Sequence record: PQ249395
Reading direction: 5' to 3' (one strand)
DNA: 64,000 nucleotides
Source of the DNA: Escherichia phage Pu-Krd-SF1
The notes beneath the pieces are model-generated. The model saw only the letters and a program-made list of their open reading frames with translations. It was not told the origin of the DNA and did no database searches. The position numbers and the translations under genes were made by a program. This document shows, in pieces, positions 52,388-52,724 of the stretch (within the stretch, counting starts at the first letter, position 1; the number at the start of each line of letters is the position of its first letter).

Positions 52388-52724
52388 AGATGATTTAGAT
52401 TTAGATCTAGAAATTATCGATGAATCCCCCTCTTCGGAGGGGGAAGAAGAAAGAAAAGAACGTCTTTTTAATGAATCTCTTAAGATAATTAAATCTGCCA
52501 TGGAAAATGTTATCCAGGAGATTGTCATTAAACTAGAAGATGATTCTACACACATTGTGTATGTGACAAAATTAGATTGGGTTGATGGAAAAGTCGTAAT
52601 GGACTTTGCTGTTCTTGACCAAGAAAGAAAAGCTGAGTTAGCTCCTCATGTAGAAAAGTGTATTACAATGCAACTACAAGATGCATTTAATAAAAGGTCA
52701 AAGAAAAAATTTAAATTCTTTTAA
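52380..52724 (+). CDS. 40: head-assembly protein gp40
   Basis: 114 aa, acidic N-terminus; overlaps uvsX stop. Confidence 0.75.
   Translation: MNKDDLDLDLEIIDESPSSEGEEERKERLFNESLKIIKSAMENVIQEIVIKLEDDSTHIVYVTKLDWVDGKVVMDFAVLDQERKAELAPHVEKCITMQLQDAFNKRSKKKFKFF

Follow-up and report, generated by a model that had tools for sequence, protein, structure and literature searches.

A hairpin conserved as RNA structure just past uvsX and embedded in gene 40 of T4-type phages: a probable 3'-end barrier for the uvsX message

Several kinds of RNA stem-loop are known at the ends of cistrons in bacteria and their phages. In E. coli, intercistronic stem-loops such as the REP element in malE-malF block 3' exonucleases and the upstream cistrons are stabilised, and the 3' ends of Rho-dependent transcripts are trimmed back to a hairpin. 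In the T4-type phages, Arbiol and colleagues are said to have described in 2010 the PeSL cassettes, which combine an early promoter with a stem-loop. The C(UUCG)G hairpins of T4 were reportedly described, by Tuerk and colleagues in PNAS in 1988, mainly from intercistronic regions. These extra-stable hairpins were first noticed in T4 messages (PMC4371310).

The closest described element lies in T4 itself, upstream of gene 41. In Kim et al. 2025 (PMC12152347; Hinton laboratory), the 358 nt upstream of T4 gene 41 were used, and the legend of Fig. 5B, citing Hinton 1989 (J Biol Chem 264:14432 and 14440), places an in-vivo RNA 3' end immediately past a stem-loop in this region. The authors, again citing Hinton 1989, state that in rho(nusD) hosts more RNA ends there and less 41 mRNA is present, and that GoF(D25Y) restores the 41 mRNA; their reporter assays have GoF(D25Y) lengthening RNA half-life with transcription unchanged. 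The Hinton 2010 review (PMC2988021) adds that termination is not simply increased by the mutant Rho proteins, and that T4 growth can also be rescued with extra mutant Rho or with the RNA binder Rop; from this came a model in which nucleases destroy these RNAs unless something protects them.

The DNA analysed in this work, hereafter the window, is a stretch of 64,000 nt from Escherichia phage Pu-Krd-SF1 (sequence record PQ249395), a T4-type phage of the genus Tequatrovirus. Gene identities were assigned by comparison with the curated T4 annotation, and the segment 52200-52760 matches 652 phage records, mostly at 95-100% identity. The features of the region are:

49849-50904: b-gt (T4 annotation)
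51206-52387, + strand: uvsX, RecA-like recombinase, the upstream cistron (ORF and T4 annotation)
52380-52724, + strand: gene 40, head vertex assembly chaperone (ORF and T4 annotation)
52425-52444, + strand: RNA hairpin U-CCCCCUC-(UUCG)-GAGGGGG-A (sequence and predicted fold)
52445-52465, + strand: purine-rich tail AAGAAGAAAGAAAAGAACGUC with no U-run (sequence), probably the region of the reported in-vivo RNA 3' end
52734-54161, + strand: gene 41, replicative helicase with a GTG start, the downstream cistron (ORF and T4 annotation)

The gene 40 ATG at 52380 overlaps the uvsX stop codon at 52385-52387 (ATGAATAA), so the two genes leave no gap between them and a hairpin at this junction must be coding. 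The hairpin begins 37 nt past the uvsX stop and 45 nt past the gene 40 ATG, in a part of the gene that encodes the acidic N-terminal ~30 residues of gp40, which are poorly conserved in the alignment. Its 8-bp stem consists of 6 G-C and 2 U-A pairs with a predicted energy of -15.9 kcal/mol, and the C(UUCG)G tetraloop at 52433-52436 has its C-G closure at 52432-52437 on the coding strand. The preliminary description of this DNA had placed CCCCCTC-TTCG-GAGGGGG at 52426-52443, 15 codons into gene 40 and encoding ESPSSEGE; the sequence is found exactly there, and the hairpin takes up codons 16-22 (SPSSEGE) after E15. The seven base pairs of that description also stand, except that they are 6 G-C pairs and one U-A pair instead of pure G/C, and a flanking U-A pair lengthens the stem to eight (52425-52444). 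Its remark that the hairpin lacks a U-run and is not a classical terminator agrees with the sequence after the stem, AAGAAGAAAGAAAAGAACG, and with a promoter and terminator scan in which the hairpin was not terminator-like and no promoter-like site was called at or beside 52425-52444. Both folds computed for a 121-nt context, MFE and centroid, contain the hairpin; the fold of that context as a whole is ordinary (z = -1.45) and the local hairpin alone is unusual, in surroundings of 29-35% G+C. Five hairpins of -15.9 kcal/mol or below occur on the + strand of the window, compared with 0.15 per dinucleotide shuffle.

The hairpin of T4 (NC_000866), at 22329-22348 there, is base-for-base the same. 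The 358-nt region corresponds to 52376-52733 of the window, and since the only strong stem-loop there is the one at -15.9 kcal/mol (the next best reaches -5.0), the window hairpin is very probably the stem-loop reported in T4. The two share genes, position and sequence with no substantive difference, and the T4 reports on the 3' end and on 41 mRNA match the behaviour predicted for the window hairpin. The element itself is thus already described in T4; what is added here is its conservation across genera, the codon evidence, its shift between spacer and coding sequence, and a possible class of hairpins embedded in reading frames.

When the hairpin is held against the better-known classes, a covariance scan of 52200-52800 with Rfam 15 gave no match at E <= 1. 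With intrinsic terminators it has in common a G+C-rich stem-loop (8 bp, 6 G-C, -15.9), but it differs in its tail AAGAAGAAAG without a U-run, in its location inside an ORF, and in the nearly flat read density across it. With the C(UUCG)G hairpins of T4 it shares the loop, the C-G closing pair, the G+C stem and the transcribed strand, whereas it is located inside a reading frame and becomes intercistronic only in relatives that have a spacer. The motif CTTCGG is frequent in the window, with 28 occurrences on both strands against 12.7 expected, a count reached in none of 100 shuffles. As a separate observation, most of the strong CTTCGG-loop hairpins directly follow stop codons, for instance at 6672-6687, 16271-16288, 36539-36558, 37810-37829, 43389-43410 and 45338-45355. 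The hairpin resembles PeSL cassettes in being a stem-loop at a gene boundary of a T4-type genome, and is unlike them in having no adjacent promoter-like sequence and in not being intergenic. The E. coli intercistronic barriers are closer: in both cases a polycistronic RNA has a stable hairpin without a U-run just past one of its cistrons, a reported 3' end right past the stem, and an end level sensitive to Rho alleles and RNA-binding proteins. Unlike those barriers, the window hairpin is not a REP element and is embedded in the next ORF, and its stabilisation of uvsX is putative.

Conservation was examined at the uvsX-40-41 junctions of twelve further genera and 112 IMG/VR loci. A strong hairpin is present at the same place inside gene 40 in nine named genera, with differing stems, loops, polarity and encoded peptides, and further versions occur in additional unnamed lineages. 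The named versions are:

Tequatrovirus and Karamvirus: CCCCCUC-UUCG-GAGGGGG
Mosigvirus: CCCCUUC-UUCG-GAAGGGG, a synonymous and compensatory change
Gelderlandvirus: CCCCCUC-UCAG-GAGGGGG
Jiaodavirus: UCUCCCUC-GGAA-GAGGGAGA
Marfavirus: AAGCUCCCCUU-GAAG-AAGGGGAGUUU
Winklervirus: GGAAUCCUC-UGAU-GAGGAUUCC
Gaprivervirus: GAGGGAGC-UAAG-GCUCCUUC, with flipped polarity and the peptide AEGAKAPS
Dhakavirus: GAGGGUC-CUAGU-GACCCUC, with the peptide EEGPSDPR

Because the loops vary among genera (UCAG, GGAA, UAAG, CUAGU, UGAU and GAAG besides UUCG), the loop type is not the conserved feature. The pairing is. Among the 50 loci with a UvsX identity of 55% or more, 49 have a hairpin of -10 kcal/mol or below that starts 1-60 nt past the uvsX stop, and windows of equal size within uvsX, used as a control, reach -10 kcal/mol in 0-7%. 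Environmental T4-like contigs with about 50% UvsX identity are mostly without it (hairpin in 4 of 30). With 22 distinct variants anchored on the loop, pairing across 7 pairs amounts to 98.7%, and re-dealing the arms among the variants lowers it to 48%. In the CCCCCUC-type group (seven distinct sequences), compensatory double changes occur in four of eight pairs and one-sided variation in none, values matched by 0-1 of 500 shuffles; as the variants compared are related sequences, shuffle-based significance is inflated throughout. MAFFT placed the Marfavirus hairpin one column off register, and the Marfavirus row was dropped from the pair count. Three Dhakavirus-like loci (L079, L089 and L088) display a U-A, U.G, C-G series. 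Such diversity of stems is hard to explain without selection for pairing. The single enterobacterial-type locus without a hairpin after uvsX (L071, IMGVR_UViG_2974769608_000001; best -2.8 kcal/mol) has a 300-codon ORF in place of gene 40. In a separate search of IMG/VR with gp44 alone, only near-identical phages were matched.

The coding sequence itself bears the mark of the structure. The stem codons are among the rarest synonymous choices (TCC 5.2%, CCC 2.1%, TCG 6.1%, GAG 15.7%, GGG 5.4%), with a joint probability of 1.8e-7 for the seven choices, and when gene 40 codons 2-40 were recoded synonymously 1000 times, -15.9 kcal/mol was never reached. In eight other genera the same test gave 0-67 recodings per 1000 as strong as the natural sequence, and in Lazarusvirus, where the hairpin is weak, it was not significant (96 of 1000). 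Rare codons and failed recodings together indicate selection on the nucleotides and not on the peptide. The peptides encoded at the hairpin include ESPSSEGE, EAPSQEGE, ESPSEEGD, AEGAKAPS, EEGPSDPR and EESSDEDS, so that the outcome which the preliminary description had named as evidence against an RNA element, a conserved peptide with unconserved pairing, is found reversed: the pairing is kept and the peptide varies.

The position of the hairpin is informative where uvsX and gene 40 do not overlap. At 11 loci with a uvsX/gene 40 spacer of 33-75 nt, a hairpin of -11.2 to -15.5 kcal/mol is located within the spacer and starts 1-9 nt past the uvsX stop, and in gene 40 nt 16-135 of these 11 loci there is nothing stronger than -5.0; their gene 40 is free of the hairpin even where the acidic N-terminus of gp40 is kept. 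The comparison thus points to a simple rule, one hairpin just past uvsX wherever the sequence allows, and since the hairpin moves into the spacer when there is one, the common factor is the end of uvsX and not the early elongation of gp40, and a role in gp40 itself is likewise disfavoured. As to origin, we considered and rejected the idea that an N-terminal extension of gp40 capturing an intergenic hairpin is the sole source of the embedded versions: Gualtarvirus-type phages combine the acidic extension with a hairpin between the genes.

The strand on which the structure acts can also be told from the variants. Of 27 variants, 20 fold more stably as sense than as antisense RNA (Wilcoxon p = 5e-4), G-U outnumbers A-C at the wobble positions by 8:2, and 13 of the 27 have UUCG or GNRA loops in the sense orientation. 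This bias, the G-U pairs and the loops together point to the mRNA, and not to the DNA or an antisense transcript. The hairpin is functional at the RNA level. The preliminary suggestion of an RNA element that could set the expression of 40 and 41 relative to uvsX is borne out in this respect by the conserved pairing, the rare codons and the 3' end reported in PMC12152347. A RegB (GGAG) cleavage site was considered as its function and rejected, GGAG being absent from the Mosigvirus and Dhakavirus versions.

Hairpins at the start of abutting genes are not confined to gene 40. A scan of T4, which covered 66 kb with the curated coordinates of 121 genes on one strand, gave 34 strong sense-strand hairpins. 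The start of 22 of them falls no more than 70 nt past a stop codon, the background being 13.4% (p = 6e-12). Of the 17 that are intragenic, eight (in 57B, e.3, e.2, tk.4, nrdG, 62, 40 and segF) start no more than 70 nt past the stop of the abutting upstream gene, against a background of 9.6% (p = 8e-5). At nt 13-90, 7 of 66 abutting T4 genes and 0 of 49 spaced ones have a hairpin stronger than in at least 98% of their synonymous recodings (Fisher p = 0.018). The equivalents in the window, each 14-65 nt past the stop of an abutting or overlapping upstream gene, are:

518-538: equivalent of the 57B hairpin
7722-7741: equivalent of the e.3 hairpin
13905-13923: equivalent of the tk.4 hairpin
32100-32125: equivalent of the nrdG hairpin
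44461-44482: equivalent of the gene 62 hairpin
57647-57671: equivalent of the segF hairpin

Similar cistron-end cases embedded in ORFs occur in Mosigvirus, Jiaodavirus and Gaprivervirus. The gene 62 hairpin is present in the window and in Jiaodavirus, replaced by a different one in Gaprivervirus and absent in Mosigvirus; this turnover indicates that the class is less strictly kept than the gene 40 hairpin. We therefore put forward only tentatively, as a possibility with the odds somewhat against it, that T4-type phages have a hitherto unrecognised class of cistron-end hairpins, located in the first ~20-70 nt of the next, overlapping ORF, of which the gene 40 hairpin would be the strongest. If such a class exists, closely packed polycistronic messages would be divided into separately stable segments by hairpins that impose the N-terminal residues on the protein encoded next and that shift freely, in the course of evolution, between spacers and coding regions.

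We propose, with a probability of about 60%, that the gene 40 hairpin serves as a 3'-end element at which exonucleases are stopped, so that the uvsX message is protected independently of genes 40 and 41. Transcripts of uvsX-40-41 would be broken or terminated somewhere downstream, and 3'-to-5' exonucleases would degrade them back until halted at the very stable C(UUCG)G hairpin. The remaining RNA would end just past the stem and keep a complete, translatable uvsX, so that the uvsX message would gain a stability of its own, separate from that of genes 40 and 41. At the uvsX/40 overlap, where there is no spacer, the element would have been written into codons 16-22 of gene 40. At 37 nt past the uvsX stop it would be beyond melting by a ribosome terminating on uvsX, and at 45 nt past the gene 40 ATG it would leave gene 40 initiation unblocked. 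The more RNA ends at the hairpin, the lower gene 41 mRNA should be. The hairpin has what marks the barrier class, being a stable stem-loop just past a cistron that is conserved as structure. The barrier is favoured because the 3' end lies right past the stem and its level depends on RNA-binding proteins, and because the effect of GoF(D25Y) is post-transcriptional and the same positional rule is seen genome-wide in T4; the 3' end itself would accordingly come from exonuclease trimming rather than termination. The strong and long-standing selection on the RNA, together with its tracking of the uvsX end, is an argument for regarding the mapped 3' end as functional rather than incidental.

The barrier would bear on both physiology and an old question. 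A recombinase, a head-assembly factor and a helicase share one message here and need not be required equally, and the hairpin is the one structural landmark at the uvsX/40 junction. It ties the locus to the question raised in 1989, the failure of T4 on rho(nusD) and the rescue of 41 mRNA by GoF(D25Y), Rop and extra Rho. It is also a clean example of RNA structure constraining a coding sequence at an overlapping-gene junction, and the natural variants found in the comparison, which differ in stem, loop and position, can serve experiments.

Several points stand against the barrier. Published RNA-seq of a wild-type host at 5 min, which consists of per-gene counts at one time point, contains no excess of uvsX over 41 RNA: the densities in uvsX, gene 40 and gene 41 are 46.0, 39.8 and 43.1 reads/nt respectively. 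RNA-seq coverage had been named in the preliminary description as a check across uvsX-40-41, and these nearly flat densities make any effect on 40 and 41 modest under that condition. In a time-resolved T4 omics study (PMC9697503), uvsX and 40 RNA are classed as 'early' and 41 RNA as 'middle'. Since ribosomes translating gene 40 must melt the hairpin, its protection would apply only to truncated or poorly translated RNAs. In addition, several spacer relatives (L074, L090 and L112) carry the hairpin followed by a U-run, like true terminators; given these relatives, termination remains a live alternative.

In its developed form this alternative holds that the hairpin is a leaky transcriptional stop, at which a polymerase pause or low-efficiency termination (intrinsic, through Rho/NusA, or by the T4-modified polymerase) attenuates 40-41. 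More than 120 unrelated viral contigs (IMG/VR loci L139-L258) contain the 18-mer CCCCCTCTTCGGAGGGGG exactly, with a U-run after it (at least 5 T in the next 8 nt) in 93 of 121 occurrences, and this recurrence with U-runs indicates a convergent 'stock' terminator stem in phages. To this can be added the U-run relatives themselves, a spacer hairpin annotated as 'terminator' in phage Miller, the greater amount of RNA ending at the hairpin in rho mutants (PMC12152347), and a gene 40 read density 14% below that of uvsX. The window, T4 and the other embedded versions, however, have purine-rich or mixed tails, with no U-run among the tails listed, and gene 41 still has 94% of the uvsX density at 5 min; from the three densities we conclude that the hairpin is not an efficient terminator. 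The mutant-host data also run against a stop, as GoF(D25Y) acts on half-life and not on transcription (PMC12152347), and as mutant Rho does not simply over-terminate and the RNA binder Rop also rescues (PMC2988021). We consider a leaky stop unlikely.

The hairpin could instead serve the downstream message, either as a 5'-proximal shield of a cut 40-41 mRNA or as a binding site for Rho, Rop or GoF(D25Y). Stabilisation by GoF(D25Y) is, in PMC12152347, strongest with the full 358 nt and weaker with the 20 nt adjoining gene 41, and there is AU-rich sequence before the stem. The mapped end at the stem-loop is a 3' end and not a 5' end in the same paper, however, and the spacer relatives have their hairpin 1-9 nt past the uvsX stop. 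The 18-mer is a generic terminator stem in unrelated phages and the stem, loop and polarity vary among genera, which argues against a sequence-specific protein site. A role in the downstream message is thus quite improbable.

A translational device for gene 40, slowing early elongation or tuning coupled re-initiation from uvsX, would suit the place of the hairpin, 45 nt past the ATG and just beyond an initiating ribosome, and the restriction of strong nt 13-90 hairpins to abutting T4 genes. Where there is a spacer, however, the hairpin precedes the ribosome-binding site of gene 40 and the gene itself has no hairpin, and this reading has very little probability. Finally, a palindrome acting in DNA (a cruciform, recombination or nuclease site), chance, or a constraint on a P-S...E-G peptide motif can hardly account for the hairpin: the sequence is a near-perfect inverted repeat in DNA too, and Pro/Gly and Ser/Glu codons are mutually complementary so that a PS..EG peptide can encode a hairpin, but G-U pairs, UUCG/GNRA loops and the stabler sense fold speak against DNA, rare codons, synonymous resampling and the changing peptides with kept pairing against the peptide, and an expectation of 0.15 such hairpins per 64 kb against chance.

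Some features of the surroundings remain to be recorded. Between ~15 kb and 58 kb the window has no copy of the late-promoter motif TATAAATA, which leaves gene 40 without a late promoter near the hairpin. The A+T-rich 15-bp hairpins at 54168-54203 and 17102-17137 are closely alike (AGCTGACAAGACTATGGTATAGTAGTCTTGTTGGTT and AGTTGGCAAGGTTATGGTATAGTAATCTTGCCAACT) and resemble the promoter/stem-loop cassettes of T4-type phages; a -35/-10-like promoter (TTTACA..17..TATAGT, 54162-54190) is predicted over the former. Located past gene 41, the 54168-54203 hairpin is a better PeSL candidate than the gene 40 hairpin, and as it begins 6 nt past the gene 41 stop it marks the distal end of uvsX-40-41. On the upstream side, the homing endonuclease gene segA, which is between b-gt and uvsX in T4, is absent from 50905-51205 of the window, and this 300-nt spacer holds a 37-codon ORF at about 50955-51068 (MLGPLLLIIGLGLFAFLGLFVMLVRKERISSNSQTPS), whose putative product is small and hydrophobic. 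The best-matching GenBank record, PQ759884.1 (Pu-Krd-SF4), is identical across 52200-52760, and elsewhere the window is a mosaic relative to it, with blocks of 89-99.7% identity at rearranged offsets. PQ759884.1 annotates uvsX as two CDS; in the window uvsX is intact.
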